Under the pieces are notes generated by a model. It saw nothing but the letters and a program-made list of their open reading frames with translations, was not told where the DNA came from and ran no database searches. The translations under genes were made by a program, and so were the position numbers. A DNA stretch of 64,000 nt. Origin: an uncultured Candidatus Saccharibacteria bacterium. GTDB lineage: Bacteria > Patescibacteriota > WWE3 > UBA101185 > UBA10185. The stretch is taken from NCBI GenBank assembly GCA_964387275.1, contig CAYLVW010000001.1, positions 150,619 through 214,618 on the forward strand, in the 5' to 3' direction. Every line of letters begins with the position of its first letter. Position 1 is the stretch's first letter. Positions 27,248 through 48,802 of this stretch are shown piece by piece.

Positions 27248-28366
27248 ATGAAAATAACACTAGTAATACCAACCTATAACGAAGTTGAAAATATTCGTCT
27301 CCTTTTACCAGCTCTCTTTGAGGAGTTTAACAAATACCCAGAACATGAGTGGTCAGTTTTGATAGTAGATGGAAATTCTCCTGATGGTACCGCCAGTGAA
27401 GTGAGGACTGTTATGTCTAATAATTCCAATGTACACATTATAGTTGAAAAAGAAAAACGTGGTTTGGGTAGCGCCTATATAACTGGGTTTAAAGAAGCAA
27501 TGAATGGTTTGAATGCTGATGCTGTTGTAGAAATGGATGCTGATTTCCAACACGATCCAAAAGATGTGATTAGGTTAGTAAGGGAGTTGGAAAATGGTTA
27601 CGATTATATAATAGGCTCGAGATTTGTGGCAGGGGGTTCTATTCCAAAAGAATGGGCGTTTTATAGGAAATTTTTGAGTGTTGGGGGGAGCATTTTTTCA
27701 AAGATAGTACTTGGTATTTATAATGTTAATGATTTTACCTCAGGATTTAAGTGCACAAGGGTTAGGGGTTTTCTAGAAAAGGTTGATTTTTCACAAGTTC
27801 TTTCCAAAGGATTTGCATACAAGATGGATCTTTTATACAAAATGTTTCTGCTTGGCGCTAAATTTAGGGAAGTTCCTATAGAATTCGGGTTAAGGGATCG
27901 GGGAGACTCTAAGATGGAGAATAACAACTTCATGGACTCCTTAAAAGTTATTTTATTGCTTAGATTTTATAAAAGTAAGAGTTTTTTCAAATTTGCTATA
28001 GTCGGTTTTGCTGGACTTTTTGTAGATATACTAATCTTTAATTTTGCTAGGTACTTAAGTGGACAATCCGGGTTATCTGCACTTATATCAGGCGCTATAG
28101 CAATGTTTACTACTTTTATGCTTAATAATTATTGGTCGTTTGGTGAAAGAAAGATTGAGAGGTTTTCCAAACAACTAGTTGGCATTATAATATATATTGC
28201 ATCTTCTGCTATACCAGTTTTGGTTAGGAGCAAGTTGGTGCATTATTCTACAGATACCTTTGGCGATACATTTATTGTTTCTAATGTAGCGTTTTTCATT
28301 GGGATAGTATTTGGTCTTATTTGGAACTATACAGTGTATAGCAGGGTAATCTGGAAAAAGAAATGA
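27248..28366 (+). CDS. GT2 polyprenyl-phosphate sugar synthase (Dpm1/Ppm1-like) fused to a C-terminal GtrA-like 4-TM domain.
   Basis: ITLVIPTYNE...VLIVDGNSPDGTA...DADFQHDP is a DPM1-type GT-A motif set. The C-terminal FAIVGFAGLFVDILIFN...NNYWSFGER is GtrA-like. Confidence 0.85.
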   Translation: MKITLVIPTYNEVENIRLLLPALFEEFNKYPEHEWSVLIVDGNSPDGTASEVRTVMSNNSNVHIIVEKEKRGLGSAYITGFKEAMNGLNADAVVEMDADFQHDPKDVIRLVRELENGYDYIIGSRFVAGGSIPKEWAFYRKFLSVGGSIFSKIVLGIYNVNDFTSGFKCTRVRGFLEKVDFSQVLSKGFAYKMDLLYKMFLLGAKFREVPIEFGLRDRGDSKMENNNFMDSLKVILLLRFYKSKSFFKFAIVGFAGLFVDILIFNFARYLSGQSGLSALISGAIAMFTTFMLNNYWSFGERKIERFSKQLVGIIIYIASSAIPVLVRSKLVHYSTDTFGDTFIVSNVAFFIGIVFGLIWNYTVYSRVIWKKK

Positions 28367-29112: not shown

Positions 29113-29114
29113 CT

Positions 29115-30446: not shown

Positions 30447-30448
30447 AG

Positions 30449-31700: not shown

Positions 31701-31738
31701 GGGCCGGGTTATTGGAGCGAAGCTCAATAACCCGGCCC
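31701..31738. terminator. 14-bp GC-rich inverted repeat (GGGCCGGGTTATTG / CAATAACCCGGCCC, 10-nt loop) between convergent genes.
   Basis: Perfect inverted repeat read directly from the sequence. It sits between the + strand GT4 gene (ends 31648) and the - strand gene (ends 31770). There is a T-rich stretch upstream and an A-rich stretch downstream. Confidence 0.5.
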
Positions 31739-31769
31739 CTAAGCCGTCCTACAAAACCAAAACAAAAGC

Positions 31770-32012: not shown

Positions 32013-32078
32013 GATTCTCTCCTCTTTCACCAAAAGTCCTCTCTTAATTAAGACAATAATATCATGTACAATAACCTT

Positions 32079-33260
32079 ATGAAAATTGCTGTTTTTATAA
32101 AATCCACCACGTTTCACAAAACATACGGTGGTATGGAAACACAAAACAAATTATTGTGTGAAGAATTAGCTAGAAGAGGTTACCAAGTCACAGTATTCTC
32201 CCCCCAACTTGAACTTACAATTTCTGACAAGAATGAATTTGGGGTAAGGTATGAATTTATCAATTGTGACTACACAAATTCACTATTGTCATTTATAAAC
32301 CCTAATAGCTGGTTTAAGAAATCTTATGACCATTTTATAAAGCAGGACACTGAAAGAAATTTTGATATCATTATTTCTCAAAGCTCTGCCGCTCTTGGTG
32401 TTATAAAAAGAAGACGCTTTGTAAAAGCATCAATAATTTCAATCTCACATGGAACGACAATTAGCGAATACAAAAGCTACTTATCTTCTGCTAAATCTCT
32501 TAAATCTTACCTACGTTTTGTGCCTAATACTCTATATACTCTAAGAAATTTTTTTGGTAGGCAAAGAGAGTTTATACATGGTTCGGATGTCAATGTGGCA
32601 GTTTCAAATTTTGTTAAAACTAACTTGATCAATGAGACATTTGTTGAAGAGAATAAAGTTATTGTTATCAATAACGGTATAGACCCTAACCCATTTGAGA
32701 AGTTTCAGAGAACTTTCAAAACAGCCAGGAATCTTAAAGTGATGTATTCTGGAAGAGTTGACAGATCTAAGGGGGTATTTCAGTTACTAAGGTTGGCTAA
32801 AAAATTTCCCGAACTTCAGATAAACTTTTATGGAACAGGTGACGCTTATGAAGATCTATCCAAGCAAGTTATGAAAGACAGCATTAACAATGTTGTTATG
32901 CATGGCAAGGTACTGTACAAAGACATGGTGGCTAAATATTTTGAAAATGACGTTTTGGTATTGCCAACTATTCGAGTAGAGGGGTTACCGATGGTTATTA
33001 TTGAGGCGCAGTTTTCCAAATTACCAATTATTGCAAGTGACATGGGAGGTATAACTGACGCAATAAAAAACGGCAAAACAGGCTTGCTTATAAATGCTGG
33101 AGATTTTGAAGACTTAGCTGATAAAATAAAGATACTTATGTCGTCAATGGAAACCAGGAAAAAAGTTTCTGAGGGAGCCTACAATTTTGCAACAGAGAAT
33201 TTTACGATTACTAAGATGACAGATAGATACGAACAAATTATTAGAAAGCTTAGAAAATGA
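32079..33260 (+). CDS. GT4 glycosyltransferase.
   Basis: MKIAVFIKS...GGME N-terminus. C-terminal VLPTIRVEGLPMVIIEAQFSKLPIIASDMGG is the GT4 motif. Start chosen at 32079. Confidence 0.8.
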   Translation: MKIAVFIKSTTFHKTYGGMETQNKLLCEELARRGYQVTVFSPQLELTISDKNEFGVRYEFINCDYTNSLLSFINPNSWFKKSYDHFIKQDTERNFDIIISQSSAALGVIKRRRFVKASIISISHGTTISEYKSYLSSAKSLKSYLRFVPNTLYTLRNFFGRQREFIHGSDVNVAVSNFVKTNLINETFVEENKVIVINNGIDPNPFEKFQRTFKTARNLKVMYSGRVDRSKGVFQLLRLAKKFPELQINFYGTGDAYEDLSKQVMKDSINNVVMHGKVLYKDMVAKYFENDVLVLPTIRVEGLPMVIIEAQFSKLPIIASDMGGITDAIKNGKTGLLINAGDFEDLADKIKILMSSMETRKKVSEGAYNFATENFTITKMTDRYEQIIRKLRK

Positions 33261-34450
33261 AAATTCTTAGAATTGTATACGATTGGCCTCCACCCTGGGA
33301 CGGTTTAGGCCCACATCCTTATGAGGTGACTGTTTCTCAGGCCTTACTTGGTCATGATATTACAGTTTTTTGTGCGAGGTGGCCAAATGCTGGGAAAATT
33401 GAAGAACCTAAAGGTACCTCTGTGGTTGGTTTTATTAGAGAGCCCATTGAAGGTACCTGGTTTTTTACCACTTCTTTACTGATGTTTGGATATTATCTTT
33501 CTTGGAGGTCCCATAACACTCCAGATATTATTCATATACATGGCCATTTTGGTGCATGGATTTATCTTTATCGTAGATTTCTCGCAATATTTAATAAAAA
33601 CCACCCAGAATTATCTATACCTATTGTTTCTCACTTTCACAATACTGTAGCTGGTAGAAGAGCTAAATTTTTATCTATGAACAAACCAATAAAGACTATT
33701 TCTAAGTACTTGTCTTGGCCCATTGCTGAGTGGTCTGATAGGCAAGCTATAAAGCAGTCTAAGGCACATCTTTTTGTTAGCCAAGACACCAGAGACGAGG
33801 CAGTAAAGTTTTACTCCGCTTCTTTAGAAAAATGTTACTTAGTAGAAACTGGTGTTAATACACATTTATTTAGGCCGATAGGTACCGAGGAGTTTGAAAA
33901 AACTCGCAAAGATTTAGGTTTGGATTCCAGAGATATTGTTATTTTGAATTACGGGAAGATGGTTGAGAGAAAAAATATTCATCTACTGGTGGAAGCTTTA
34001 CCAAACTTACCCATAACTTACAAACTTCTGCTTGTTGGTTCTGGGGATAGTTCTTATATCGGGAGAATGAAAGAGCGAATTACAGAGCTTGGTTTAACAG
34101 ATCGGGTTATTTTTGTAGGTTATACTCCGTACCCAGAACTTCCTATAGCAATTCAGGCGTCAAATTTATTTGTTCTTCCTTCAAGCTGGGAGGGTTTACC
34201 AAAGGTTGTTATGGAAAGTTTGGCGTGTAAAGTTAAAGTATTAGCTTCAGGATTTAGAGTATCCGAGGACATTAGGGGTCTATTTTACTTAGAATCTTTG
34301 GAACCTATGGATATTGCAGCCAAAATACAGGAAGTGGTTCAAACTGAGGTTGACGTAGATAGGGATAGGATTATAGACAAATTTTCTTGGGATAAGCGTG
34401 TGCAAATTATTGAAAAGGTATATGAAAAAATCACTTCAGCAGATAATTAA
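33257..34450 (+). CDS. GT4 glycosyltransferase.
   Basis: LPSSWEGLPKVVMESLACKVKVLAS. ATGA overlap with the upstream gene. Confidence 0.8.
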   Translation: MKILRIVYDWPPPWDGLGPHPYEVTVSQALLGHDITVFCARWPNAGKIEEPKGTSVVGFIREPIEGTWFFTTSLLMFGYYLSWRSHNTPDIIHIHGHFGAWIYLYRRFLAIFNKNHPELSIPIVSHFHNTVAGRRAKFLSMNKPIKTISKYLSWPIAEWSDRQAIKQSKAHLFVSQDTRDEAVKFYSASLEKCYLVETGVNTHLFRPIGTEEFEKTRKDLGLDSRDIVILNYGKMVERKNIHLLVEALPNLPITYKLLLVGSGDSSYIGRMKERITELGLTDRVIFVGYTPYPELPIAIQASNLFVLPSSWEGLPKVVMESLACKVKVLASGFRVSEDIRGLFYLESLEPMDIAAKIQEVVQTEVDVDRDRIIDKFSWDKRVQIIEKVYEKITSADN

Positions 34451-36005
34451 TATAGATAAATTCTTCCATGAAAAAAGTACTATAAATTTTGTATTTGTAC
34501 TATTTATTACACTACACTTATTTTTACTAAACATTAACTTTGCAGAGTGGGGAGATTCGTACAGAATACTAAGGGCCTCTGAGTACCTACGCTCCTTTGA
34601 TTATCCTAGTGATGAGAAAAGGCCACCTCTGTATTCTCTGTTGCTTTCCATTAGGCCCTCTGTTGTAGATCCTATTATATGGGGCAAGATATTAATGTTA
34701 CTAATTAGCACGCTAACATTCATACTGTTCACTAAAATAGCCAGTGAGTTTTTTTCAAATAATTATTACAAAACAAATTTAGCTTCATTATTTTTGGCAC
34801 TTAACCCGGTGTTTTTATATTGGTCACTTAGAATTTATGCTGATGTTTTTTTTGCATTAATAGTACTTTTGGCGACTTTAGTTTATATAAAAAGGTATAA
34901 GAGAGTTAATTCGTATCTTAATATTTTCATATTAGGGTTTATTACATCCTTGGGAATAGTAACTAGATTTGAAGGTTTTATTCTTTTTGGGGCACTCGGG
35001 ATTGGAATTACTTTTTCAGAAGGCTTTGTTAACTTGACCTACCAAATAAGAGAAAACTTAGGTAAAGTCTTATCTTATGCCTTAACTGTTGTTTTAATGA
35101 TTTTTCCATACTTTATTTGGAGAAATCCTTTTACAAGCTCTTATTTATCTGAGCCATCAGGCAGAGTATTTGGGGTAAACGAAATAGTAATATTTTTTGC
35201 ATCCGTTGCTTTTTGTGGTGGTTCCATTTTGTATTTTATATTTATAAGCCAATCAATTAATACCATAAAAAAGTTTCTTGTTGAGAATACGTTTATTGGA
35301 AGCTACCTTCTTTTTATTTTAATACTTTCTTTGCTATGGCCCGCTGCTATTCCCAGATTACTGGTTTCTGCTATTCCCTTTGGGATATTATTGTTTGTTG
35401 TTCAGTACACATCTGTTCTTGAGTTTACAAAGAAACAGGTAATAATTGTTAGTTCTCTCCTTATTGGTTTTTATATATTAGTGCAGTATAAATACAAATT
35501 GCAGTTTTTGTTACCGAGTAAACAACTTATGGTTATTGTGATTCTTATGGGTCTTTTGTCACTACTTGCTTATTTGCTTAGGAACAAAAACCTTTTATTG
35601 CTATCTTTCATACTTTCTATGTTTGTCTGGTCATTAACTGTAGTATATTTGCATAAAGATATATTCAAGGTTGTAACATTAGGTGCCAAATTCGCAGGTA
35701 GGGGTTTGGATGGGGTTGTTGCTTACAACGATATCTCCGCTGTATCTGACTGGTATCTTAATAATGATCCTTTGAGAAATCCTAAAGTTAGTGGAAAATT
35801 TCTACCTTACTACAAAAAATCCGATGCTAGCTTATCTAATCTGAGGGCAATAGGGTCAGATTATCTTCTTATTACTAACGAGCATAATTTGAGTATGACA
35901 TTTGATGATAGCGACAAGCCTTATTTAGAAAAAGTAGCTGAATATACTGAAACAGTAAATGGAGGTAGTTTTTTTACCAAAGTATACAAGGTAAAGTATA
36001 ATTAA
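34422..36005 (+). CDS. GT-C fold membrane glycosyltransferase, ArnT/PMT-like (GT39/GT83-type).
   Basis: More than 10 predicted TM segments. The first extracytoplasmic loop reads YPSDEKRPPLYSLLLS, matching the ArnT-family DE...KPPL..W motif. C-terminal soluble domain. Start at 34422 (GAAAAGG RBS). Confidence 0.7.
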   Translation: MKKSLQQIINIDKFFHEKSTINFVFVLFITLHLFLLNINFAEWGDSYRILRASEYLRSFDYPSDEKRPPLYSLLLSIRPSVVDPIIWGKILMLLISTLTFILFTKIASEFFSNNYYKTNLASLFLALNPVFLYWSLRIYADVFFALIVLLATLVYIKRYKRVNSYLNIFILGFITSLGIVTRFEGFILFGALGIGITFSEGFVNLTYQIRENLGKVLSYALTVVLMIFPYFIWRNPFTSSYLSEPSGRVFGVNEIVIFFASVAFCGGSILYFIFISQSINTIKKFLVENTFIGSYLLFILILSLLWPAAIPRLLVSAIPFGILLFVVQYTSVLEFTKKQVIIVSSLLIGFYILVQYKYKLQFLLPSKQLMVIVILMGLLSLLAYLLRNKNLLLLSFILSMFVWSLTVVYLHKDIFKVVTLGAKFAGRGLDGVVAYNDISAVSDWYLNNDPLRNPKVSGKFLPYYKKSDASLSNLRAIGSDYLLITNEHNLSMTFDDSDKPYLEKVAEYTETVNGGSFFTKVYKVKYN

Positions 36006-36009
36006 ACTT

Positions 36010-36699
36010 ATGAAATTATCAGTCGTTATTCCAGTTTATAATGAAAAAAAAACTATTGAACAGATAATAGCATCTGTAAGATCTGTTACGGGGATTGAGA
36101 AGGAGATAGTAGTTGTAGACGATTTTTCTACCGACGGCACTCGGGAAATCCTTTCCGGAATATCAACAAAATATCCAGAGGTAAAAATATATTTTAAAGA
36201 ATTTAATTCAGGTAAGGGAGCTACTTTAAGGGAAGCATTTAGCCATACCACCGGAGATTTAGTAATAGTACAAGATGCTGATTTAGAGTATGACCCCAAA
36301 GATTACTCAGTGTTGGTTGAAGCTTACAATAAATTAGGTGGCAAGGCTGTAGTATATGGTTCAAGGTTTTCAGGAAATTACCAAGACATGACCAGTCTGC
36401 ATTATCATGGAAATCGGCTACTTACTATGATAACTAATTTTCTTTTTGGTACTTCACTTACTGATATGGAGACATGCTACAAACTCTTACCTGGGAATTT
36501 TGCTCGTGAAGTTAAAATTATTTCTAATAGATTTAACTTTGAGCCGGAGATCACAGCAAAAATTCTTAAATCTGGTTTTAAGATTGTAGAAGTCCCTATT
36601 ACTTATAAAGGCAGAAGTTTTTCAGAAGGAAAAAAAATTACATGGCGAGATGGTATATCTGCTTTGTACACATTAATTAGATTTAGAATTGCCAGTTAG
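36010..36699 (+). CDS. GT2 polyprenyl-phosphate sugar synthase-like glycosyltransferase.
   Basis: LSVVIPVYNEKKTIEQII...VVVDDFSTDGT...VQDADLEYDP. Confidence 0.82.
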   Translation: MKLSVVIPVYNEKKTIEQIIASVRSVTGIEKEIVVVDDFSTDGTREILSGISTKYPEVKIYFKEFNSGKGATLREAFSHTTGDLVIVQDADLEYDPKDYSVLVEAYNKLGGKAVVYGSRFSGNYQDMTSLHYHGNRLLTMITNFLFGTSLTDMETCYKLLPGNFAREVKIISNRFNFEPEITAKILKSGFKIVEVPITYKGRSFSEGKKITWRDGISALYTLIRFRIAS

Positions 36700-36702
36700 C
36701 TT

Positions 36703-38850
36703 ATGAAAAAACTAGTTAACTTTTTGACTAATAATAAATTGTTGGTGGTACTTTTTGTTTACAGTCTGTTTATTTTCGCTGTAAATATTAGGATAAACTA
36801 TTTTAGATACGATAATTTTGATTTTGGTAAGTTTGACTTGGGTAACATGTCTCAAATGTTATGGAATACCATGAATGGTAGGTTTATGTATCTTACTGAT
36901 TACTTTGGGACGAATCTACCTAGGTGGGCAATGAGCCATGTTGATCCTATCCTTCTTCTTTTCTTGCCGGTTTTTGCGATATTTCCGAATTCTATGACTC
37001 TGGTAGTAGGGCAGTTAATACTTGTTATTTTTGGGTCACTTATAGTCTACTATATTGCAAAGCAGCAACTTGGGTCTAGTTTATCTGGTTTTATTGCAGG
37101 ATTAATATACTTGTCTTACCCTGCTCTTGGGTTTTTGACTGCTTGGACTGGTTTTCATGGAGTTAGTGCTGCTATACCTTTTTTTCTTCTAGCTTTTTAT
37201 TTATTAGAACGAATGCATAAGTCTAATAATTTTAACCGTTTCGGTATTGGATTATTTTGGCTTTTGCTCATAATCTTGATGTCTGGAAAAGAGCAGATAT
37301 CTCTATATATTGTTATGTGGGGAATTTTTATTTTGTTTTTTAGAAGCAGCCTTGATTATTCTTCCATTAAAAACTTCAGTGTGACCAGATATATTGCTGA
37401 TGTTAGAACTAAGTTAGGTTTATCTATGGTACTAATTGGAGCATTGTGGTTCATATTTTGTTTTTTTGTAATAATTCCTGCCAATGCTCACTATAGGATT
37501 AATGGTTTTGATCGGTTTGCAAAGAGTTTGGATTTAAATCCAGAAGGTTTAAATGATGTATCAAAGGACAACTATTTTCTTAAGAGGTACGAATCTTTTG
37601 GGGATGGATATTTGGGTGTAGCTCTTGGAATACTAGGTAATCCTTCTGATACCATAAGGGTATTATTTGGTGGAGACAAGCTTGATAATTTTCGAGAGAC
37701 TTTGGAGCCACTCGGCTACCTACCTTTTTTGTACCCACAGGTGTTTTTGCTGGCACTACCTGATTTTGCAATTAATTATCTTACTACCCTAGATGGAGTT
37801 GGTACCTCTGAGATTTATAATCATAGAGTCTCTATGATAATACCAGTAGTTGTGGTTTCTGCAATTTATGCTGTTGGGTTTTTGTCCAGTTTACTTTCTG
37901 AGATAGGGATAAAAAACAAAAAACTTGATAAAAAATTAGTATCTACTGTTCTACTATTATTTGTTTTATTTCAAACCCTACTTAGTACATATAGATATAA
38001 TAATCCGGTTTATTTATGGTTTACACAAGCCATTCAAAAAAAACTTATTGGATCTGTTGCACTTGCAAAAACTGATACATCTTTAATTAACAAAGCGTTA
38101 GGGAAGGGTGATGTTGTGAGGATAACTACCTTGGAGAATAAAGACAGAGAGTGCGCTAAGCAGATTGTAGAAATGATACCAGAAGGTGTTAGTGTGAGCG
38201 GACCTGACTATTTAGGTGCTCATCTAGGACTTCGTGAAACTTATGCAATATTTCCGGCTTTATACAATGAGGCTGACTACGTTATCATAGATGTATTTTC
38301 CAAAAAGATACTAACAATATTGGATGCTGATGTGTCTTTAGTTAAGGATGTTTTGAAGGATGTATACACCAGCAAGGACTACGATATGGTGACTGGGTGT
38401 GGTAACTTGTTCGTTTTTAGAAAAATTCAGACATCCGAAACAGTATCAAAGCTGCCGTTACAAGAAAGATTTACATACGATGAGAAAGTTAGTATGGAAA
38501 TTTTTCAAACACTCACTGTGGTTGATTACATATATCCAGAGAGTATGAATCGCGGTAGTTCCTATCCATTTGAGATTGTCTACTCCAAAAAAGGTGATGG
38601 CAACTTATCTGATTATGTTTTATATACTACATTAATAAATAACAAAACAGGGCAAGTTTACCAATTTGCCAATCTACCTTCCTTTGCTATATCACCTGTA
38701 AAAGATTGGGTTGAGGATAGATACTATATCGAATCCTTTGGGGTTACTATTCCTGGATATATAGATGGAGGTAACTACAGATTGTTTGTTGGTATGACTA
38801 ATAACATTAGAAATAGAAGTATGTATTTAGGAGATATACAGGTCAATTAA
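36703..38850 (+). CDS. Large polytopic membrane protein (715 aa) with a C-terminal extracytoplasmic domain, putative GT-C glycosyltransferase.
   Basis: About 12 TM segments in the N-terminal 440 aa, then a soluble roughly 270-aa domain. No assignable named family from sequence alone. Confidence 0.5.
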   Translation: MKKLVNFLTNNKLLVVLFVYSLFIFAVNIRINYFRYDNFDFGKFDLGNMSQMLWNTMNGRFMYLTDYFGTNLPRWAMSHVDPILLLFLPVFAIFPNSMTLVVGQLILVIFGSLIVYYIAKQQLGSSLSGFIAGLIYLSYPALGFLTAWTGFHGVSAAIPFFLLAFYLLERMHKSNNFNRFGIGLFWLLLIILMSGKEQISLYIVMWGIFILFFRSSLDYSSIKNFSVTRYIADVRTKLGLSMVLIGALWFIFCFFVIIPANAHYRINGFDRFAKSLDLNPEGLNDVSKDNYFLKRYESFGDGYLGVALGILGNPSDTIRVLFGGDKLDNFRETLEPLGYLPFLYPQVFLLALPDFAINYLTTLDGVGTSEIYNHRVSMIIPVVVVSAIYAVGFLSSLLSEIGIKNKKLDKKLVSTVLLLFVLFQTLLSTYRYNNPVYLWFTQAIQKKLIGSVALAKTDTSLINKALGKGDVVRITTLENKDRECAKQIVEMIPEGVSVSGPDYLGAHLGLRETYAIFPALYNEADYVIIDVFSKKILTILDADVSLVKDVLKDVYTSKDYDMVTGCGNLFVFRKIQTSETVSKLPLQERFTYDEKVSMEIFQTLTVVDYIYPESMNRGSSYPFEIVYSKKGDGNLSDYVLYTTLINNKTGQVYQFANLPSFAISPVKDWVEDRYYIESFGVTIPGYIDGGNYRLFVGMTNNIRNRSMYLGDIQVN

Positions 38851-38894
38851 CTGGTGTTTGACGATCCCACCTAAATACCTGCACAATAAAGTAT

Positions 38895-40370
38895 ATGAAT
38901 TTTGAATCACTATCTAAATGGCAACTAGTTAGCTTACTATCAAGAGGCTTTGCGATGTCAATTGGTATTTTGCAAAGTTTTTTTATTGTAAGGATGCTTA
39001 CAGTTGGGGAGTGGGGTCTTATTCAGATTGCTATTTCTATAGGAGGCGCTCTTGGTATATATCAGCATTTAGGGCTTGCTTCTGGCTCAACTCGTGAAAT
39101 TTCTCAAGCTAAAAATGATGATGCTGTATTTAAGGTGTTTCTTACAAGTCTATTTGTGAGATACATGATGACTGTTCCTCTTGCCTTAGGGCTTTTTTTC
39201 TTTTCTGAGTATTTATCTATTGATAAATATTCCCACTCAGAATTGATTATTCCACTTAAGCTATATGCGATAGTTATGGTTTTTCAGGGAGCTCAGAGTA
39301 TACTAAATTCGGTTATTTCAGGCACAAAAAGGTTCAAACACCTATTTTTGTACCAAGCTTTAATTACTTTTGTAAGTTTAGTTTTGTTTATACCTTTTGT
39401 ATTTTTCTATAAAATTAACGGTTATTTTATTGCCATGTTGTTGTTTAACACAATATCTACCATTGTATTAGCTATTCTTGCGTTAAAACCACTAAAGACT
39501 ACTTTCCCTCTTCCTACTAAATCAGAATTTAAAACATTACTTAAAGACCTAATGACAATAAGTTTAGCCATCTATCTAGTAAAAGTAATTTATACACTTT
39601 GGGAGAAAATTGGGCCGCTTATTTTGGGACTTGAACTTACACCGGAGATTGTAGGTATTTTTGCTTTTGCTATGTTGTATGCAAAAAAGATTGTAAATGT
39701 CTCTGATGCAATTACTGATGTAAATCTGCCTGTTTTGTCAGAGAAATTTGTGAAAAATCTTGATGATTTTAAGATTACATTTAGTCAAAATTTTGATAAA
39801 GTTTTTGCTCTTATTTTATTTTTAGGTTTTACAGCTGTTTATTGGGCACCCCAAGTTGTTGTTGTTCTTGTAGGCAGCGATAAATACACACAGTCTCTGC
39901 AAATGATTATTCCTTTAACATACGCATTTATTATGTACTCTTTTATTAACATTGCTAAATCCAGTGTAATTATTCCGGCCAAACTAACAAAAGAACTAAT
40001 TGTTTCTTTTATAATTTTGATTTTACTCACTTTGGGATTTTATTATGGTACTTTTCAAATTTTAGGCAACCTAACAGCCATGTGCTACGGTATGTTGATA
40101 GGATCACTTGGAGGATTTGCATCTATGGTTATTTTTTCAATAACTAAGCTAAAGTATTCGTTTTGGACATTAGATCATACGTTGTTGCTGGTTCAAAGTT
40201 TTGCGATTAGTATGGTAACTGCAAATCCTATTTTGGTTCTGAAAGTAGTTTTATACATAATATTTTTCGCCCTATATTTGTGGGCAGTTAGGGAGAGTGG
40301 ATTTGTCAAGGACACCGATTTTAGGAGGTATACAGGCAAATTTTTAAATCTAAGGTTACTAAAAAAATGA
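38895..40370 (+). CDS. MOP-superfamily polysaccharide/oligosaccharide flippase (Wzx-like).
   Basis: About 14 TM segments. The N-terminus LLSRGFAMSIGILQSFFIVRMLTVGEWGLIQIAISIGGALG resembles the Polysacc_synt consensus. Confidence 0.7.
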   Translation: MNFESLSKWQLVSLLSRGFAMSIGILQSFFIVRMLTVGEWGLIQIAISIGGALGIYQHLGLASGSTREISQAKNDDAVFKVFLTSLFVRYMMTVPLALGLFFFSEYLSIDKYSHSELIIPLKLYAIVMVFQGAQSILNSVISGTKRFKHLFLYQALITFVSLVLFIPFVFFYKINGYFIAMLLFNTISTIVLAILALKPLKTTFPLPTKSEFKTLLKDLMTISLAIYLVKVIYTLWEKIGPLILGLELTPEIVGIFAFAMLYAKKIVNVSDAITDVNLPVLSEKFVKNLDDFKITFSQNFDKVFALILFLGFTAVYWAPQVVVVLVGSDKYTQSLQMIIPLTYAFIMYSFINIAKSSVIIPAKLTKELIVSFIILILLTLGFYYGTFQILGNLTAMCYGMLIGSLGGFASMVIFSITKLKYSFWTLDHTLLLVQSFAISMVTANPILVLKVVLYIIFFALYLWAVRESGFVKDTDFRRYTGKFLNLRLLKK

Positions 40371-41302
40371 AGAAGTATCTAAAAACCATTTTAAAAATTA
40401 CTATAAGTGTATTGTTGTTTTCGGTTTTAATCTATACCGTTGATTTTGACTCCGTTCTTACATCTGCTGAAAACTTTGATTATAGGTATGGGATTTACGC
40501 TATTATGTTTACTTGTTTAAACTACTTTATTTCTTCAGTACGGTGGAAAAATCTGTTAAGTATTTATGAGAACACAAAGCACATAACAGTTAAGCATCTA
40601 ACCTCGCTTTATTTTGTTGGTTCCTTCTTCAATAACTTTATGCCTACAAGTATTGGTGGCGATGCTTACAAAATATTTCGATTAGGTAAGCAAATTAATA
40701 GTGTTGAGAACGCATTTTCTGCCACTTTTATGGAGAGATTTACAGGTATGATTGCTCTTGTTTTTATATCTGTGTTTGGGTTGCTCGGATTATATACCGT
40801 TGAGCAGTCTCAACTTAAGGGTTTTGATAGTACTTGGGTGATGGTTGCTATACTAGCTGGATTATTATTTGTACTGATTTTTGGGTTTGTTGCAGGATTG
40901 AAAGTATTAGATTTTGCAAGAAAAAAGATTTCAAAGTTCGAGAAGATTTATGTATCTCTTGTTGCTTATCGCGGTAAGAATAGAGTGTTGGCCATAGCAT
41001 TTCTTACATCCTTTGCAGTTCAATTTCTATCGATATTTACTCAGTACTTTGTATTTAAGGGTTTGGGAATGGAGTTAGATATTTTAAAAACTCTATTTAT
41101 TTTTCCCATAATCACACTGGCTGGTTTTTTTATACCTTCCTTAAATGGAATTGGAGTTCAAGATGTTTTGTACAGAATGTCTTACACGTTTTTGTTGGTA
41201 ACCCCAGAGCTTGCTCTAACAGCCTCCATTATTTACCATTTCGTACGTTTATCCGTTAGTCTTATAGGAGGTTTATTGTACGTGGTAGATAAGAACCAAT
41301 AG
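40367..41302 (+). CDS. LPG-synthase-TM / UPF0104 flippase-like membrane protein.
   Basis: 8 TM segments. FFNNFMPTSIGGDAYKIFRL matches the conserved UPF0104 motif (P...GGD..R). Confidence 0.65.
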   Translation: MKKYLKTILKITISVLLFSVLIYTVDFDSVLTSAENFDYRYGIYAIMFTCLNYFISSVRWKNLLSIYENTKHITVKHLTSLYFVGSFFNNFMPTSIGGDAYKIFRLGKQINSVENAFSATFMERFTGMIALVFISVFGLLGLYTVEQSQLKGFDSTWVMVAILAGLLFVLIFGFVAGLKVLDFARKKISKFEKIYVSLVAYRGKNRVLAIAFLTSFAVQFLSIFTQYFVFKGLGMELDILKTLFIFPIITLAGFFIPSLNGIGVQDVLYRMSYTFLLVTPELALTASIIYHFVRLSVSLIGGLLYVVDKNQ

Positions 41303-41304
41303 CT

Positions 41305-42849
41305 ATGAACAAAAAACTTTTTGGTAGGGATTTAGACTATAGAAAAGTTTATGTACTTTTATTTATAGTCATATTTTTTATAACTAGATTTTTATTTGTT
41401 GGGTATGAAGAAATCAATCCTGATACAGTCAATTGGTATTATAGGTCTGAACAATTTATTGTCGGATTAAAAAGTTTACAGTTAGAAAAGACCTACCAAC
41501 ACTACCATCCTGGTACTACTTTAATGTGGATCATGGGTATATCCACGGAGATTATTAAGAAAATTGACGCAGTTGGCGAAGTCATAAACAATGAAAACTT
41601 TTTAGTTTTTCATATTGTGACTAAAGTAGTTTTTGGTTTGGTTCAATTAGTATTATCTTTAGCTATTTTATATTTACTTTCCAAAATACTCGGGTTTGTA
41701 AAGGCTCTTTTAGTAGTTTCTATTTTTTCATTTGAACCGTTTTTTATAGGGAATTCAAGGTTTTTACACTTGGATGTTTTGTTATCTCTTTTTATAATAA
41801 CCACACTGGCCCTATCATTCTATAATTATTATGTTAGGGAGAAGCCTTCTTCTTATATATCAATTATTATAGGCATCTTAGCACTACTTACTTTTTTAAC
41901 CAAAAGCATAGGTATTAGTGTTTTACCCATGATTGTATTGACTATAATGCTTGGTAATCCCAAATATAGACTTCAAAGTATTATTATTGTATTAAGTAGT
42001 TTGATATTAATGGCCCCGATATTCTTGCCTGCTCTTATTAAAGACTATTCAGGAACTATAGCACTTATTTTTAAAGAGGCACTAAGAATCGGGAATAAAA
42101 ATGGCCACGAGCAGATTTTCTTGGGAGAGGAAACTATAAATGCTGGGTTTTGGTTTTATTTTGTATCTCTACTGATAAAAGTTTCTCCCTTACTTATGGT
42201 GAGCACGGTAACTGGGGTTATAGTTTTTACTAGCAACATTAAAAAGAATATTACTAAGATAGATAAGTTTTATTTACTTAGTGCTCTTTACTATGTAGGT
42301 TATTTTGTAGTGATGAGTCTGCTATCTAAAAAGCTTGATAGGTATATGATTCCAATGTTTCCATTTTTTTCTTTGTTTGCTGTTTATGCATTTAGCAAGT
42401 TCTATGACACTAAAAGCAACTTTTCAAAAGTAATGTCTGTGGTTTTTACTCTTTGTTTGTTTTTAAATGTTTATTCCTTGATAAATTTATTTCCCTATTA
42501 TTTTGTTTATGCTAGTCAGCTATCTGGTGGGCCCGTATTAGCTAATTCACTAATTGCCCAGAAACCATTCGGTCAGGGAGTTGTTTGGCTAAAGGATTAC
42601 TTGCTTGATAAGTACGGGGAACCTAAAAACGTAGGAATTTATGATCGAAAACCCCTTAGCATGATTTATCCTAATTCTAAATTATTCGATGTTAGGGAAT
42701 ATGACCCAACCAAGTATGATATTTTAGTACTAGCAGTAAATGAGGAGATTCCCGAGAAAGTTGAGAACGGAGACGCTGCCTTTAACTTAATGAATATTTT
42801 ATATATCAATAACCTGCCTTATTGGAGAATCTATGAGAAAGTTAAGTAA
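41305..42849 (+). CDS. Polytopic membrane protein, putative GT-C glycosyltransferase (paralog of 44301..45881).
   Basis: Shares the YHPGTTLMW motif (YHPGVPLMW in the paralog). Multi-TM N-terminal region followed by a soluble C-terminal domain. Confidence 0.5.
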   Translation: MNKKLFGRDLDYRKVYVLLFIVIFFITRFLFVGYEEINPDTVNWYYRSEQFIVGLKSLQLEKTYQHYHPGTTLMWIMGISTEIIKKIDAVGEVINNENFLVFHIVTKVVFGLVQLVLSLAILYLLSKILGFVKALLVVSIFSFEPFFIGNSRFLHLDVLLSLFIITTLALSFYNYYVREKPSSYISIIIGILALLTFLTKSIGISVLPMIVLTIMLGNPKYRLQSIIIVLSSLILMAPIFLPALIKDYSGTIALIFKEALRIGNKNGHEQIFLGEETINAGFWFYFVSLLIKVSPLLMVSTVTGVIVFTSNIKKNITKIDKFYLLSALYYVGYFVVMSLLSKKLDRYMIPMFPFFSLFAVYAFSKFYDTKSNFSKVMSVVFTLCLFLNVYSLINLFPYYFVYASQLSGGPVLANSLIAQKPFGQGVVWLKDYLLDKYGEPKNVGIYDRKPLSMIYPNSKLFDVREYDPTKYDILVLAVNEEIPEKVENGDAAFNLMNILYINNLPYWRIYEKVK

Positions 42850-44296
42850 CTTATGGTTATATTTAATAGTTACAATAGCAATTGTACTACGAGTGTTGTT
42901 TTTTTGGCATGGTCACCCGTTTGTGTTTCATCCAGATGAGCCTACTGTTGTGAGGTCTGCTCTCGAAGTCAGATTTTACCCAAATCCTGGACATTTTGAT
43001 TGGCCCCATCTATATATTTACATAAACTACATCGTATATATGATTTTTGCTTTTGTACGAAATATACTTAGTACTTCTGGTCTTGTTACTGAGGGACCTC
43101 TATTTGATGAAACAACTATATTTTATTATTTAACTAGAGTTTTATCTGGAGTGCTTGGGGGACTTACGGTAATCCCTGTTTATCTTACTGCTAAAACTTT
43201 TTTTAATTCCTCTAGGGTAGGTCTATTGGCTGGTTTGGTTATTGCTTTAATGCCTCTTCATGTGTGGAATTCTCACTTAGCTCTAATTGATGTACCAATG
43301 ATATTTTTTGTTTCGTGGGTTTTATACTTTGGTGCTCAAATCTATACAACAAGAAATTTAAGGTATTACATATTGGCTGGTATTTTTGTTGGTTTGGCAG
43401 CGTCTACAAAATACCATGGGGCATTTTCTGGAATATTTATTGCAGTAGTACATTTTATAGACTACAAATCTTTTTGGAAAAACCTAAGAGAACTTTATAA
43501 AGCTATTATAGCTGGAATTGTTAGTTTATTAGGTTTCCTTGTTGGCACACCTTACGCTCTAATTGATTTCACTACTTTTATTCGGACAGATGGCCCAAAA
43601 GGTGCCTTATGGCAGTTTACTAATGTAGGTCATGTTCCTTTTACTACACAAGTTGGCAAGTTTATATATAATTTATTTATTAGAATCCCTGATGACATTG
43701 GATACACATTTGCAGTTGTGTTGGTACTGGGGTTAATCTACTTTTTGTTTTCTAAAACATTTTCAAAAGGTCTTTTTCTTTTTTATACTATGTACTTGTT
43801 CCTAGTTTTTTATATATCAGGATTTGAGAAATCAAGGTCCCACTACTTGATGATTTCCTACCCGTTTATAGCAGTAGTTGTTGGGTATATGTTAGAGGTT
43901 GTTTCAGTTAAGTTTTCAAAAGTTATTAAGTACCTAGTATTATTTCTTGTGTTTATAGTTCCGTTAGGTATATCGATTTGGCAAAACTATATTTTATCCA
44001 AGGAGGATACTAGGGTTCAGTTATACCATTGGGTGTTAAGGCAGGGAGTAGTTAACAACTCTTATAACTATAGTTCAAATAACTTGAATATAATTTGGGA
44101 TAAAATTTCTACTAATAATGTAAACCGTGTTTTAGAGTCTTCCTACTTACCCTCTAGCAGTTCTTACTACATAATATCTGAAGAAGATTCCGTAACAGCT
44201 TTAGATAAGTTTAATGATTTACCAGGCACTGTTAAGACTCTTGAGACTTTTTCTCCGATAAACAGAAGAGGTCCTGTGATTTTGATAGCACAATAA
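42833..44296 (+). CDS. GT-C membrane glycosyltransferase, PMT_2/GT39-like.
   Basis: FHPDEPTVV in the first loop (the DE motif of PMT/ArnT-type enzymes). About 11 TM segments. Confidence 0.6.
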   Translation: MRKLSNLWLYLIVTIAIVLRVLFFWHGHPFVFHPDEPTVVRSALEVRFYPNPGHFDWPHLYIYINYIVYMIFAFVRNILSTSGLVTEGPLFDETTIFYYLTRVLSGVLGGLTVIPVYLTAKTFFNSSRVGLLAGLVIALMPLHVWNSHLALIDVPMIFFVSWVLYFGAQIYTTRNLRYYILAGIFVGLAASTKYHGAFSGIFIAVVHFIDYKSFWKNLRELYKAIIAGIVSLLGFLVGTPYALIDFTTFIRTDGPKGALWQFTNVGHVPFTTQVGKFIYNLFIRIPDDIGYTFAVVLVLGLIYFLFSKTFSKGLFLFYTMYLFLVFYISGFEKSRSHYLMISYPFIAVVVGYMLEVVSVKFSKVIKYLVLFLVFIVPLGISIWQNYILSKEDTRVQLYHWVLRQGVVNNSYNYSSNNLNIIWDKISTNNVNRVLESSYLPSSSSYYIISEEDSVTALDKFNDLPGTVKTLETFSPINRRGPVILIAQ

Positions 44297-44300
44297 GCTT

Positions 44301-45881
44301 ATGAAAAAATATTTGGAGCTAATTAAATATGAGTTTGGCATTTCTGTACTTTTTATTTTGTCGCATCTACCTTCTTTAGGTATAGATAATTTCAATACAG
44401 ATGTGTGGAAATGGAAAAAAAGAATATTTGATTTTTCCAGTGGTGTTTTTGGTTTGAGACCTGAGGAGACAGTTCAAACATACCATCCCGGTGTTCCTTT
44501 AATGTGGTTAGGTACTATAGCAATTAAATTTTACAATCTATCTAAAGATATTTTTAATAATGGCCAGGATTATCCAGATGTTCGGGAGATTTTTTATCTT
44601 GATTTTGCGCAGAAGTTTTTAGTTGTTTTGGGCATAGCTGTTGGAGTATTTTTTATGCTATGTGCGCTACGGAAAATACTCGGAACAAAAGGTGTAGTTG
44701 TAGCTGGGTTGCTGCTTATGTTTGAGCCTTTCTATTTGGCCCTTACCAGGGTTATACATCTTGAGGGTTTAACTTCGACATATTTGGTAGCATCCTTGCT
44801 GTGGTTATATGTTTGGGGTCAGGCCAGAAAGAAACTGTATCTAAGTATTTCAGCTATACTTGGGGTTATAGCAGTGCTTACTAAGACTTCAGCCTTAATT
44901 ATTGTTCCATTTTCTTTTGTATATATTCTGTTATTGACTAAACATCCAAAAGATATACTAAAATGGTTTGCTGTTTTTGTAGTTACTGCACTTGTAATGT
45001 GGCCTGCCTTACTTTTCAAACCTATGTATGTTATTAACTACTTATATACAGGCGTAACTGAGGTAGGGATAGAGGAGGGGCATGATCAGTTCTACTTTGG
45101 TAATTATGTAACAGACCCGGGTTGGACTTTTTATTTTGTAAGTATCGCTTATAGAACATCTCCGGCTGTATTTGTTTTATTTATTGTTTCATTGCTCGGT
45201 TTGTTGCGATACAAATCAGAGAGTAGAAAGTTTATCTTTTATATATTGGCTTTTATTTTACTTTATTTGGTCGAAATTACGCTTCCGACTAAAAAATTAG
45301 ACAGGTACATGCTGCCAATACTAATTGCTATGGTTGTATGTAGTTCAGTATTTCTTAACTACGTGATGGAAGCATTCAAACACAGGTATGTTTGGGTCAT
45401 TTCACTATTGGCAATAGTGTCCAGTTTATTTTACTCGGTTACATCACACCCAATATACCTTAATTACTACAGCCCATTATTTGGCGGGTTAGGGGCGGGT
45501 ATTCATGTGATCGAACCTAAATGGTTAATTGGTACAAATGAGATTATTAGCTATTTTAGAGATGTAAAAAGTAAAGAAGGGCTCAGTGATTTTAAGCAAG
45601 GAGAGAATATTGAGAATCTATTATATAGTCCCTTGCTAGCTAGTAAATTAACTGTAGCATTTCCTGAAAAATACTATACTCAAATACACCCATTTTTTAG
45701 GTTGATAAATAGTTGGGCAGTAATAGAAGACTTATCTGGTCAGGCAGTAAAGACTAAGTTTTTTGTATATCCTGTTTGGGATGATTATTCAAACCGTGAG
45801 ACAAGGTTTAAACTTGAGTACTATGGTGACATAAGTATTGGGGAAGTGCCTGTATACAAAGTATATAAAAGGGTAATTTGA
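44301..45881 (+). CDS. Polytopic membrane protein, putative GT-C glycosyltransferase (paralog of 41305..42849).
   Basis: YHPGVPLMW motif and similar architecture to the 41305 gene. Confidence 0.5.
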   Translation: MKKYLELIKYEFGISVLFILSHLPSLGIDNFNTDVWKWKKRIFDFSSGVFGLRPEETVQTYHPGVPLMWLGTIAIKFYNLSKDIFNNGQDYPDVREIFYLDFAQKFLVVLGIAVGVFFMLCALRKILGTKGVVVAGLLLMFEPFYLALTRVIHLEGLTSTYLVASLLWLYVWGQARKKLYLSISAILGVIAVLTKTSALIIVPFSFVYILLLTKHPKDILKWFAVFVVTALVMWPALLFKPMYVINYLYTGVTEVGIEEGHDQFYFGNYVTDPGWTFYFVSIAYRTSPAVFVLFIVSLLGLLRYKSESRKFIFYILAFILLYLVEITLPTKKLDRYMLPILIAMVVCSSVFLNYVMEAFKHRYVWVISLLAIVSSLFYSVTSHPIYLNYYSPLFGGLGAGIHVIEPKWLIGTNEIISYFRDVKSKEGLSDFKQGENIENLLYSPLLASKLTVAFPEKYYTQIHPFFRLINSWAVIEDLSGQAVKTKFFVYPVWDDYSNRETRFKLEYYGDISIGEVPVYKVYKRVI

Positions 45882-45885
45882 TTTT

Positions 45886-47175
45886 ATGGTAAGAAAGCTG
45901 CTTAATTTTATTAAGACGACTCCTATATTTGATACTGCAATGGTTTCTGGAAGTATATTTATTGCAAGTTTTCTTGCCTATTTATTGCAGTTTTACCTTG
46001 GAAGATCCCTAAGTGTTAGCGACTACGGAGATTTTGGCGCGTTACTATCTTTGTCCTATCTAATTGGTGTACCAGCTACAGTGTTTGGCTTATCTCTGAC
46101 AAAACAGGTTTCAGAAGTATATGCTACTCATAAAGATCTAATACCCGCATATTTTACTAAGATATTTATATTAAGTGTTATTCCTGGTGTATTGTTGTTT
46201 ATTTTACTTAGTGGCTTATCTTCGTTTTTTGCTACATATTTTAATCTAAACAACTATCCGGTACTTATTGCCTTCTCAATATCTGCTGGTTTCTCCTTTT
46301 TTTCTTTGGTGGCGCCATCATTTTTGCAAGGACTTCAGAGATTTAAGTCCTACTCAGTTTTTGTGATTGTATACAATATTTTTAGAACTGTAATACCTGT
46401 GGTTTTTGTATTTCTTGGTTATAGACTAATTGGTGTATTTTTTGGACTCGCGTTGGCGGCTTTTTTTGGTTTCTTATATTCTTACGTTCATTTAAAAGAT
46501 ATTTTCTTTAAAAAAATTCAAACAAGTTTTGAGGATAATACCATATTAAAGAAGTATATATATAATTTGTTTTCTTTCTCAGTTCCTGTGTTGTTGGTTA
46601 ATCTTTCTATGATGGCTTTAAACAATATTGATGTGCTAATGGTGAAGAGGTATTTTTCTCCAGAAGAAGCTGGGCACTATGTGGCTCTAGTTACCGTCGG
46701 TAAAGTGTTGTTATTTGGGGCAGGAACTGTAGCAACTGTGATGTACCCAATGCTTACTGCTGAATTTGCAAAACGAACACTAACATTAAGTAAGTTTTTT
46801 TTGTACTTTACACTGCAAGTTGTCGTTGTTGTTGTTTCTATTTTAATTTTCAGCTTATTTCCTAACTTGATTGTTGGAGTTATGTTTGGGTCAAAGTTTT
46901 TGCCGATTGTGAGTTATTTGCCTCTATTTTCAGTTTTTATGGGCTTATATGTTTTGGTAAACTTTATGGTTTTGTTTTTTCTAAGTATCAGTAGAAGTAA
47001 GGTTTTTCTAATTCAAATTCCGTTTGTGTTAGGGCAGTTTTATTTACTTAATTCTAATATTTCCTCTATAACTTCGTACATAACTATAAATATAGCTATT
47101 TCCTTTGCCCTACTAGCTGTTCTTTTACTGTACGGCTATATACAATATTCAACATGGAGAAGTCTAAAAAAGTAG
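45886..47175 (+). CDS. MOP-superfamily flippase (Polysacc_synt_3/Wzx-like), the second in the island.
   Basis: 12 to 14 TM segments. The N-terminus IFIASFLAYLLQFYLGRSLSVSDYGDFGALLSLSYL resembles the family consensus. Confidence 0.65.
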   Translation: MVRKLLNFIKTTPIFDTAMVSGSIFIASFLAYLLQFYLGRSLSVSDYGDFGALLSLSYLIGVPATVFGLSLTKQVSEVYATHKDLIPAYFTKIFILSVIPGVLLFILLSGLSSFFATYFNLNNYPVLIAFSISAGFSFFSLVAPSFLQGLQRFKSYSVFVIVYNIFRTVIPVVFVFLGYRLIGVFFGLALAAFFGFLYSYVHLKDIFFKKIQTSFEDNTILKKYIYNLFSFSVPVLLVNLSMMALNNIDVLMVKRYFSPEEAGHYVALVTVGKVLLFGAGTVATVMYPMLTAEFAKRTLTLSKFFLYFTLQVVVVVVSILIFSLFPNLIVGVMFGSKFLPIVSYLPLFSVFMGLYVLVNFMVLFFLSISRSKVFLIQIPFVLGQFYLLNSNISSITSYITINIAISFALLAVLLLYGYIQYSTWRSLKK

Positions 47176-47978
47176 TATCAGTAATAGTACCTGTATACAA
47201 AAAAGAAGCCACCATAATAAGTGATATAGATAGTATCTATAAGGCATTAGACTCCAGTAGATGGTCGTTTGAAATTATTCCTGTTATAGATGGTTTTGTA
47301 GACCGTTCTTATGAGAATGCGCTTAAGATAAAATATCCAGAAGTTAAAGTAGTAGGTTATAAAACTAATAGAGGCAAAGGTTACGCTGTGAGGTATGGTA
47401 TGGCTCAGGCAACGGGAGATTACATAGCCTTTATTGATGCCGGTATGGATATAAATCCTAATGGAATATCTTTAATTCTTGAGCATATGGAATGGTACAG
47501 AGCGGATATTATAGTTGGCAGTAAGAGGCATCCTGCATCTAAAGTTAAGTATTCTGCATTAAGAAGAATATATAGTTTCTGTTATCAGATGTTGGTATTT
47601 TTGCTTTTCCGACTGAAAATTCGAGACACTCAGGTTGGTCTTAAGGTTTATAGGAGAGAGGTATTGGAGCGTGTACTCCCAAGGCTAGTAGTAAAAACTT
47701 TTGCTTTCGATATTGAACTTCTTGCTGTTTCAAATAGATTAGGTTTTACTAGATTATACGAAGCTCCGGTTGAAGTAGCACTGGATTTTTCGAGTTCAAG
47801 CTTTAACTTAAGAAAGCCCATGTTCCTAGATCCTCAGATTAGAAATATTTTATACGACACTATTGCTGTTTTTTATAGGATGCATTTTTTAAAATACTAT
47901 GATGATGAGAACAGAATTAAGTGGGTATATGATAAAGAGCTTCAAATGCGTGTAAATACCGGGGAGATCTTGGAATGA
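47154..47978 (+). CDS. GT2 glycosyltransferase.
   Basis: VSVIVPVYKKEATI...IIPVIDGFVD...FIDAGMD has a GT-A DxD. Confidence 0.78.
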   Translation: MEKSKKVVSVIVPVYKKEATIISDIDSIYKALDSSRWSFEIIPVIDGFVDRSYENALKIKYPEVKVVGYKTNRGKGYAVRYGMAQATGDYIAFIDAGMDINPNGISLILEHMEWYRADIIVGSKRHPASKVKYSALRRIYSFCYQMLVFLLFRLKIRDTQVGLKVYRREVLERVLPRLVVKTFAFDIELLAVSNRLGFTRLYEAPVEVALDFSSSSFNLRKPMFLDPQIRNILYDTIAVFYRMHFLKYYDDENRIKWVYDKELQMRVNTGEILE

Positions 47979-48802
47979 TTACCAATGGACCTTTAGTGTC
48001 TGTATTAATACCCGTTTACAATACTGAGAAATATATAAAAGATAGTGTAGATAGCATTATTTCACAGACATATTCCAACCTTGAGATAATTGTCGTAGAT
48101 GATGCCTCTACAGATTCTACATACAGTATATTAAGTTCCTATAATGATCCTAGACTTCGTCTATATAGAAATGAAACAAACCTTTATATAGCTGAGAATA
48201 GAAACAAGGCGATTAGCTATGCCACTGGCAAATACATCGTGTGGCAAGATGCTGACGATATTTCACTACCTACTAGAGTAGAAATTCTTGTTTCGTTTAT
48301 GGAAAGTCACTCCGATGTGGGGATCTGTGGTTCATATCTTCAATCCTTTGACGAAACAGGGGATAAGGATATAAGGGAATATGCTACAAATGACAGTATG
48401 CTTAGAAAGAACATTTTTAAGTATTCTCCTGTAGCTCAGCCAACCGCAATAATTCGTAGAGATATCTTAGACTTGGTAGGTAAATACAATCCAAAATTTC
48501 CGCCTGCTGAAGATTTGGATATGTCATTTAGAATAGGCTCAGTTAGTAAGTTTGCAAATGTACCACAGGTATTATTAAAGTATAGAGAGCATAGTGCATC
48601 AAATACATCAACTAGAATGCTAAGGCAAATCGATTCCACGCTAGATATACGTAAGTCTAATATGAATAATAGCAATTATAGCTTTGATATTTCAGATTAC
48701 GTAGCGTATTATTTAACAAGTATTACAAAATTATTGCCCCCATTTTTTGTAATTAAATTATTTAAAATTTCTAGATTAATTAGTAGGAAAATATTTAAAT
48801 GA
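47975..48802 (+). CDS. GT2 glycosyltransferase.
   Basis: [26 protein letters not shown]...[12 protein letters not shown]...QDADD. Confidence 0.85.

Follow-up and report, generated by a model that had tools for sequence, protein, structure and literature searches.

The question raised by this locus is what kind of protein is encoded by two neighboring membrane-protein genes that share a YHPGxxLMW string, and whether that string marks something new. The locus lies in a 64,000-nucleotide stretch of DNA (the window) from an uncultured Candidatus Saccharibacteria bacterium placed in WWE3 by GTDB (assembly GCA_964387275.1, contig CAYLVW010000001.1, positions 150,619 to 214,618 of the forward strand). 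The original prediction, made from the sequence, described three tandem membrane-protein genes, of which the first and third were paralogs, and proposed that their motif could not be assigned to a named family and might define an undescribed subgroup of GT-C-like enzymes. The three open reading frames (ORFs) are present as described, all on the + strand: gene A (41305..42849, 514 amino acids), gene B (42833..44296, 487 amino acids), and gene C (44301..45881, 526 amino acids). With a probability of about 0.8, A and C are ancient paralogs within one uncharacterised GT-CA subfamily of the PMT (GT39)/ArnT (GT83)/PMT_2 clan, and B joins them as a third member, of a more canonical PMT type. The description that suits the two paralogs best is that of an HPGVT branch, itself uncharacterised, within a known family whose members already have a loose GT39-like annotation; they are not a new kind of enzyme.

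Paralogy and colinearity of the first and third genes are clear. A and C align by BLASTP with 29% identity over 408 amino acids (E=1e-33) and are colinear, as are the secondary-structure strings of their AlphaFold2 models (pLDDT 92.5 for A and 91.1 for C, pTM 0.92 for both). The GT-CA class, which includes ALG3/9/12, ArnT, ALG6, EmbA-C, and AftD, is defined by a conserved module of seven transmembrane (TM) helices, a variable module, and a two-helix first luminal loop with the catalytic base on its first helix (PMC13503287). The models of A and C have an N-terminal 7-TM conserved module followed by a variable TM module, and their first extracytoplasmic loop (loop 1) consists of two helices with an acidic residue on the first. 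In A, TM1 covers residues 12-29 and TM2 begins at residue 71, with the loop-1 helices between them at 39-56 and 60-63; in C, the loop-1 helices are at 35-50 and 54-57. Both proteins also have a C-terminal α/β extracytoplasmic domain of about 110 amino acids. The top matches of C were Pmt4 (24.1), ALG12 (24.0), Pmt2 (23.8), and ArnT (23.1), with which Foldseek agreed.

Family assignment rests on the orthologs and on profiles built from them. Most orthologs that are 40-58% identical to A or C match PF13231 (PMT_2) and/or PF02366 (PMT), and several have been named “glycosyltransferase family 39 protein” by NCBI; several pass PF02366 with 24-36 bits against a cutoff of 22.7 bits. Since most orthologs pass PF13231, membership in PMT_2 is clear at the family level even though A and C themselves fall short. 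A 42-sequence family profile matched ArnT from Cupriavidus metallidurans (5ezm, E=0.0011) and Pmt4 from Chaetomium thermophilum (9i5k, E=0.03). The comparison by hhalign of the family with the single Escherichia coli ArnT sequence was weak (probability 1.7%) and covered residues 155-357 only, outside loop 1, where it agrees with the alignment of the profile to 5ezm. The GT-C-like character proposed for A and C is thus borne out by the profile matches to ArnT and Pmt4, the GT-CA layout of the models, and the orthologs above the Pfam thresholds for PMT_2 and PMT.

The protein flanked by the two paralogs is PMT_2/GT39-like, as the original prediction had it. B passes Pfam PMT_2 (3.6e-13) and PMT (1.2e-10), and matches yeast Pmt1 (6p25_A, E=1.1e-8). 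Its first loop has the string FHPDEPTVV (F32 to V40; 42926..42952, + strand), which includes the DE catalytic motif; an xHPDE string, mostly FHPDEP, is present in 56 of the 66 B-type ORFs. Comparison of the A/C family with the B family by hhalign gave a probability of 96%. The NCBIfam scan of A, B, C, the DUF2079 protein, and a fourth PMT/ArnT-like GT-C paralog of the same block (PMT2x; 34398..36005, + strand) returned no matches.

The motif itself is Y67-HPGTTLMW-W75 in A (41503..41529, + strand) and Y61-HPGVPLMW-W69 in C (44481..44507, + strand). In both models the YHPG residues close loop 1 and the stretch corresponding to VTLMW forms the first turn of TM2, which agrees with the predicted position of the shared YHPG(T/V)xLMW string. 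The six-frame translation of the window contains only two YHPG strings, those of A and C, while a YHPG[VIT]x[LF]M[WL]-like string, mostly YHPGVTLMW, is found in 117 of 120 A-type and all 120 C-type database homologs. The common motif is the result of homology and strong purifying selection and not of chance.

Several lines of comparison connect this motif with one that has been described in other enzymes of the clan. PMTs have a loop-1 motif V-H-P-P, and V158, H159, P161, and K164 are conserved in Streptomyces coelicolor Pmt, in which H159 corresponds to ArnT K85, has been modelled beside the polyprenyl phosphate, and is among the residues that have been mutated (PMC8698208). The equivalent motif is F-E84-K85-P-P in ArnT and SHKSYRP, with H89/K90, in TMTCs (PMC7801869). 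In A and C the V-H-P-P motif is present as the variant Y-H-P-G. Comparison of the A and C family with the PMT2x family by hhalign (probability 94%) extends over the full length, including the C-terminal domain, and places H68-P-G-V-T of A on R-P-P-L-F of the PMT2x motif DEKRPPL. Distant family members have KPGVT or QPGVT in place of HPGVT, and in the Pfam PMT alignments of two orthologs the first aligned residue is the Leu that immediately follows HPGVT, matched to profile position 56. In ArnT the equivalent stretch is PD55EGRY...YF-E84-K85-PPFHMW, taken from the alignment of E. coli ArnT to 5ezm (in which the chain index is the natural numbering plus 3), and the Asp and the basic residue are spaced by 30 in ArnT as against 28 in A. 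H68 is tied to ArnT K85 by the hhalign result, the KPGVT and QPGVT variants, the start of the Pfam PMT alignments, and the published equivalence of K85 and H159. Because the motif occupies the ArnT K85/PMT H159 position, YHPGxxLMW is, on these alignments, the subfamily form of a known donor-phosphate/active-site motif and not a new element. The proposal that it cannot be assigned to a named family is therefore not supported in that form.

Other positions that are important in ArnT are also represented. Thirty-two residues are conserved in both the A and C groups, including D40, Y67, P69, G70, M74, W75, R152, H155, H268, Q270, and K342-Y347. D40 of A (NPD; 41422..41424, + strand), at the start of the first loop-1 helix (39-56) of the model and invariant in both families, and D34 of C (NTD; 44400..44402, + strand), just before the helix at 35-50 and invariant in alignment A3, are the predicted catalytic bases, consistent with the catalytic base of GT-CA enzymes being carried on the first loop-1 helix (PMC13503287). 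Distant family members have [TA]DE, the classical GT-C DE motif, at the D40 position. In the alignment of the profile to 5ezm, D157 of A (41773..41775, + strand), which is Glu in the C group and so acidic in both, aligns with ArnT D158. H268 of the invariant GHxQ (42106..42108, + strand) aligns with ArnT H267, and Y347 of the invariant KKxDRY (42343..42345, + strand) aligns with ArnT Y345. Loop 4 of ArnT contributes H267 as a ligand of a metal, and ArnT Y345 is located at the phosphate of undecaprenyl phosphate (PMC7801869). Of the ArnT residue set, D158, H267, and Y345 are thus aligned and conserved, D55 has a counterpart as judged from the motif and its spacing, and His and Ile stand in the places of K85 and R270, respectively. 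In the proposed mechanism D40 in A and D34 in C would act as catalytic base, YHPGxxLMW would cap TM2, and its His, together with H268 and Y347, would help to hold the donor phosphate. The candidate catalytic and donor-binding residues in A can accordingly be named as D40, H68, D157, H268, and Y347.

A number of results weigh against this assignment. A has no Pfam or NCBIfam match and C has only a sub-threshold match to PMT_2 (16.9 bits, E=0.0076; cutoff 26.1 bits); when PDB sequences were searched directly by phmmer with A or C, nothing meaningful was matched. With a profile restricted to the N-terminal ~135 residues (alignment A2), the PDB yielded no sequence at E<=10, and therefore the motif is not directly aligned to ArnT or PMT sequences; its residue-level mapping depends on transitive hhalign comparison, spacing, and variant patterns and not on structural superposition. 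ArnT R270 is not conserved and corresponds to I271 in A. Finally, of the DE pair only the Asp is invariant in A and C, and the Glu is absent (PDT in A, TDV in C).

The last of these points bears on whether A and C are enzymes at all. One or both could be non-catalytic scaffolds with a GT-C fold, like PIG-U/GAB1 of the glycosylphosphatidylinositol (GPI) transamidase, but the first Asp alone suffices in many active GT-C enzymes (PMC7801869), and the Asp, the His of HPG, H268, and KKxDRY are invariant in both groups across orthologs of about 45% identity, which makes a scaffold role extremely improbable. A pseudo-enzyme reading was rejected since the catalytic residues are invariant.

A rival proposal is that the YHPGxxLMW proteins are a truly new GT-C subgroup whose active site contains something novel, for instance a metal site built on His that PMT and ArnT do not have, and whose chemistry is therefore distinct. 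More than 1,400 clusters built at 50% identity carry the motif in nearly invariant form; H66 and H68 are conserved along with H268, and the ArnT Zn site consists of E84, H265, and H267 (PMC7801869). In addition, A and C are below the Pfam thresholds, the search for a characterised member found none, and the literature does not contain the motif string. However, the position, spacing, and flanks of the motif match those of the known HPP/KPP motif (PMC8698208), there is agreement with ArnT at the remaining positions for catalysis and phosphate binding, and the occurrence of Lys or Gln for His in relatives favors a role in phosphate binding or hydrogen bonding over that of an obligatory metal ligand. 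A new chemistry is therefore considered very unlikely, and membership of the PMT/ArnT/PMT_2 clan is preferred. The suggestion of an undescribed subgroup holds in part: the HPGVT subgroup is large and no characterised member of it was found, but the family is known and its homologs have already been named by NCBI. Literature searches for the strings YHPGV and HPGVT found nothing relevant, and none was found on GT-C enzymes in Patescibacteria.

Although A and C belong to this clan, they differ from each of its described branches. The GT39 PMTs (PF02366), such as yeast Pmt1, Pmt2, and Pmt4 and S. coelicolor Pmt, differ in that A and C have no MIR domain, have Gly for the second Pro of the PMT motif, which then continues as VTLMW, lack the Glu of the DE pair, and are below the threshold for PF02366 (no match at E<=0.1); A and C also differ from these PMTs in their distinct C-terminal α/β extracytoplasmic domain. 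In comparison with ArnT (GT83; C. metallidurans 5ezm/5f15), the transferase of 4-amino-4-deoxy-L-arabinose (L-Ara4N) to lipid A, A and C have His for K85 and do not conserve R270. The WWE3 RAAC2 genome does not have genes for lipid A synthesis (PMC3812714), and no ArnA-, ArnB-, or ArnD-like genes were detected among the scanned cluster genes of the window, where only a UDP-glucose dehydrogenase turned up. Lipid A is therefore an implausible acceptor for A and C, and an ArnT-type lipid A function was rejected for a lineage without lipid A and with no Ara4N genes found. Together with the differences at K85 and R270, these points show that A and C are not ArnT orthologs. PMT_2 (PF13231) is a broad bacterial ArnT/PMT-like family that B and most A and C orthologs pass, but the model covers only TM3-TM7 (residues ~102-235) and excludes the motif, so that HPGVT marks a distinct sub-branch. 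The string xHPGVTxMW can serve as a practical signature for this sub-branch of about 1,400 clusters (50% identity), which is partly caught by Pfam, and these “hypothetical” WWE3 membrane proteins can be labelled GT-CA polyprenyl-phosphate-sugar glycosyltransferases of the PMT/ArnT clan.

The distribution of the subfamily is consistent with an old duplication. A scan of 1.84 billion cluster representatives recovered 10,780 proteins with E<=1e-3, of which 1,436 reach E<=1e-30, and almost all of the full-length members among the best 150 have xHPGVT[LTV]MW. The subfamily is found mainly in WWE3/Patescibacteria, with at least one distant member in Chloroflexota, annotated as “glycosyltransferase family 39 protein.” Relatives are encoded in 116 stretches from a set of 185,579 species genomes, and all among the matches listed are from WWE3/Patescibacteria-type metagenome-assembled genomes (MAGs); the nearest database relatives of the proteins studied here are from MAGs of candidate division WWE3 (Katanobacteria, Patescibacteria/candidate phyla radiation (CPR)). 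Mean identity is 45% within the A group, 47% within the C group, and 25% between the two, and for all 146 ORFs the nearest neighbor is in the same group; the duplication is thus older than the radiation of the WWE3 sampled here. At nine positions A and C have each fixed a different residue. As most of these (six) are in the C-terminal extracytoplasmic α/β domain, a divergence in acceptor recognition is suggested, and, judging by this pattern of substitution, the acceptor or the linkage is probably not the same for A and C.

Among 78 WWE3 species loci, 66 have the A-B-C trio. Of the remaining twelve, nine are cut off by the end of the contig after A or after A-B, two have an A-like gene standing alone, and in one A is followed directly by C. 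Loci L068 and L075, from the same MAGs as L050 and L033, each hold one more A-like gene, located away from the conserved operon and without B or C beside it; these are extra HPGVT paralogs. The gene order PMT2x-GT2-DUF2079-Wzx-[LPG_synthase_TM]-A-B-C-Wzx-GT2 is nearly invariant, and the extended arrangement DUF2079-Wzx...A-B-C-Wzx is present in 52 loci. The strict adjacency of the two paralogs in those 66 loci is what would be seen if A and C, perhaps with B, formed an obligate heteromeric complex, and paralog pairs of GT-C enzymes do heterodimerise: Pmt1-Pmt2 (6p25) and EmbA-EmbB (7bvf) are both among the matches. Adjacency in an operon is equally expected of enzymes that act sequentially, however, and the full sets of catalytic residues kept in A and C fit either reading. 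An obligate complex is compatible with the assignment to the PMT/ArnT/PMT_2 clan, but is considered unlikely.

The operon around the trio suggests how these glycosyltransferases may be supplied with donor. Upstream are PMT2x and, in order on the + strand, a polyprenyl-phosphate glycosyltransferase-like GT2 that is a candidate donor synthase of conserved operon position (36010..36699), a polytopic DUF2079 membrane protein (36703..38850; Pfam 4.2e-32), which is syntenic, a first Wzx/MOP-type flippase (38895..40370; Pfam Polysacc_synt_3 and Polysacc_synt), and an LPG_synthase_TM-family membrane protein (40367..41302; Pfam 8.8e-43); a second Wzx/MOP-type flippase (45886..47175; Pfam Polysacc_synt 4.8e-19) follows C. 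The GT2 at 36010 has as its best PDB matches Dol-P-Man synthase (5mlz, 9.5e-19) and ArnC (7.6e-14), with GtrB weaker (5ekp, 2e-8). A further GT2, DPMS-like and fused to a GtrA-type TM domain (27248..28366, + strand; Pfam Glycos_transf_2 and GtrA_DPMS_TM), has a full-length match to 5mlz (4.1e-40).

In three-component lipid-sugar systems, a GT2 loads polyprenyl phosphate, the lipid-linked sugar is flipped, and a GT-C enzyme transfers the sugar outside the membrane (PMC11127046, PMC8035078). The WWE3 operon has the same logic as such systems (Gtr, CsbB/GtcA/YfhO), with Dpm1/ArnC-like GT2s, flippase-type proteins, and GT-C enzymes encoded together. While those systems have one of each component, the operon has four GT-C-type proteins (PMT2x, A, B, and C), DUF2079, and two Wzx-type flippases, and the small GtrA-type flippase is present in the block only as the domain fused to the GT2 at 27248. 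From the operon GT2s and the conserved positions of the ArnT phosphate ligands, we infer that A and C use a polyprenyl-phosphate-sugar donor. In the likely order of action, a lipid-linked sugar would be flipped to the outer face, where A, B, and C would each add a sugar from a polyprenyl-phosphate-monosaccharide donor to a common envelope acceptor. This acceptor could be a glycan that the neighboring GT4 and GT2 enzymes make and the Wzx proteins export, or a lipoglycan or surface protein. By analogy with the three-component systems, extracytoplasmic glycosylation of an envelope glycan or protein is the likely role of A-B-C. The UDP-glucose dehydrogenase encoded at 29115 is part of the glycan block, and a hexuronic acid donor can be guessed at from its presence.

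As its gene order is almost invariant across WWE3, the operon is probably responsible for a glycoconjugate that belongs to the core of the envelope in these ultra-small, uncultured bacteria, and the wider interest of the locus is in the operon rather than in the motif. The first complete WWE3 genome was reported to have no complete identifiable peptidoglycan pathway and to be unusually rich in glycosyltransferases (PMC3812714). A bolder proposal, by analogy with the mycobacterial Emb/Aft arabinan, is that the products of the operon build, outside the membrane, a major glycopolymer of the envelope that defines the lineage, with A and C as a possible heterodimeric polymerising or branching pair and HPGVT marking such enzymes; this is speculative and considered quite unlikely.

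The remaining observations concern the surroundings of the operon. From ~29100 to 48800, comparison of loci L001-L082 showed that the flanks, with UDP-glucose dehydrogenase and three GT4 genes upstream and a further GT2 downstream, also have a near-invariant order in about 78 species-level WWE3 genomes that share only about 45% protein identity; the LPG_synthase_TM gene, present in most loci, is the sole operon element that is frequently absent. PMT2x, a remote paralog of A and C with a DEKRPPL motif of canonical ArnT-like form, is a protein of 535 amino acids whose gene overlaps the preceding GT4 gene by about 50 nucleotides and has an uncertain GTG start; it has no Pfam match of its own, and its ortholog in locus L001 carries PF13231.

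The window has a GC content of about 35%, and all of its genes are on the + strand. The first ~27 kb (1-27000) are filled by rpoB/rpoC and the str and S10-spc-alpha ribosomal protein operons, directly upstream of a glycan-biosynthesis block of about 37 kb. The GC skew is uniformly positive and, together with the genes on one strand, fits what a streamlined CPR genome should show within a single replichore. Downstream of the operon, a protein of 671 amino acids (48799-50814, + strand) has two tandem domains of the short-chain dehydrogenase/reductase type, and the Pfam models for GDP-mannose 4,6-dehydratase and epimerase/reductase each match it twice, which suggests a fused Gmd-Fcl enzyme for the synthesis of GDP-fucose or a 6-deoxyhexose. 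Near the end of the window is a second tandem pair of paralogous polytopic membrane proteins (57929-59908 and 59905-61998, + strand) of 659 and 697 amino acids, with 28% identity over ~690 amino acids (E=5e-61), followed by a third large membrane protein of 543 amino acids (61998-63629, + strand). None of the three has a Pfam match even at E<=5, and their annotation is poorer than that of the A-B-C proteins. The pair has the strings QPPF, VFRSxDxxFG, and SIPExY in common, with HDE or GDQ in the first loop, and all three proteins may be further GT-C-like or polymerase-like enzymes.

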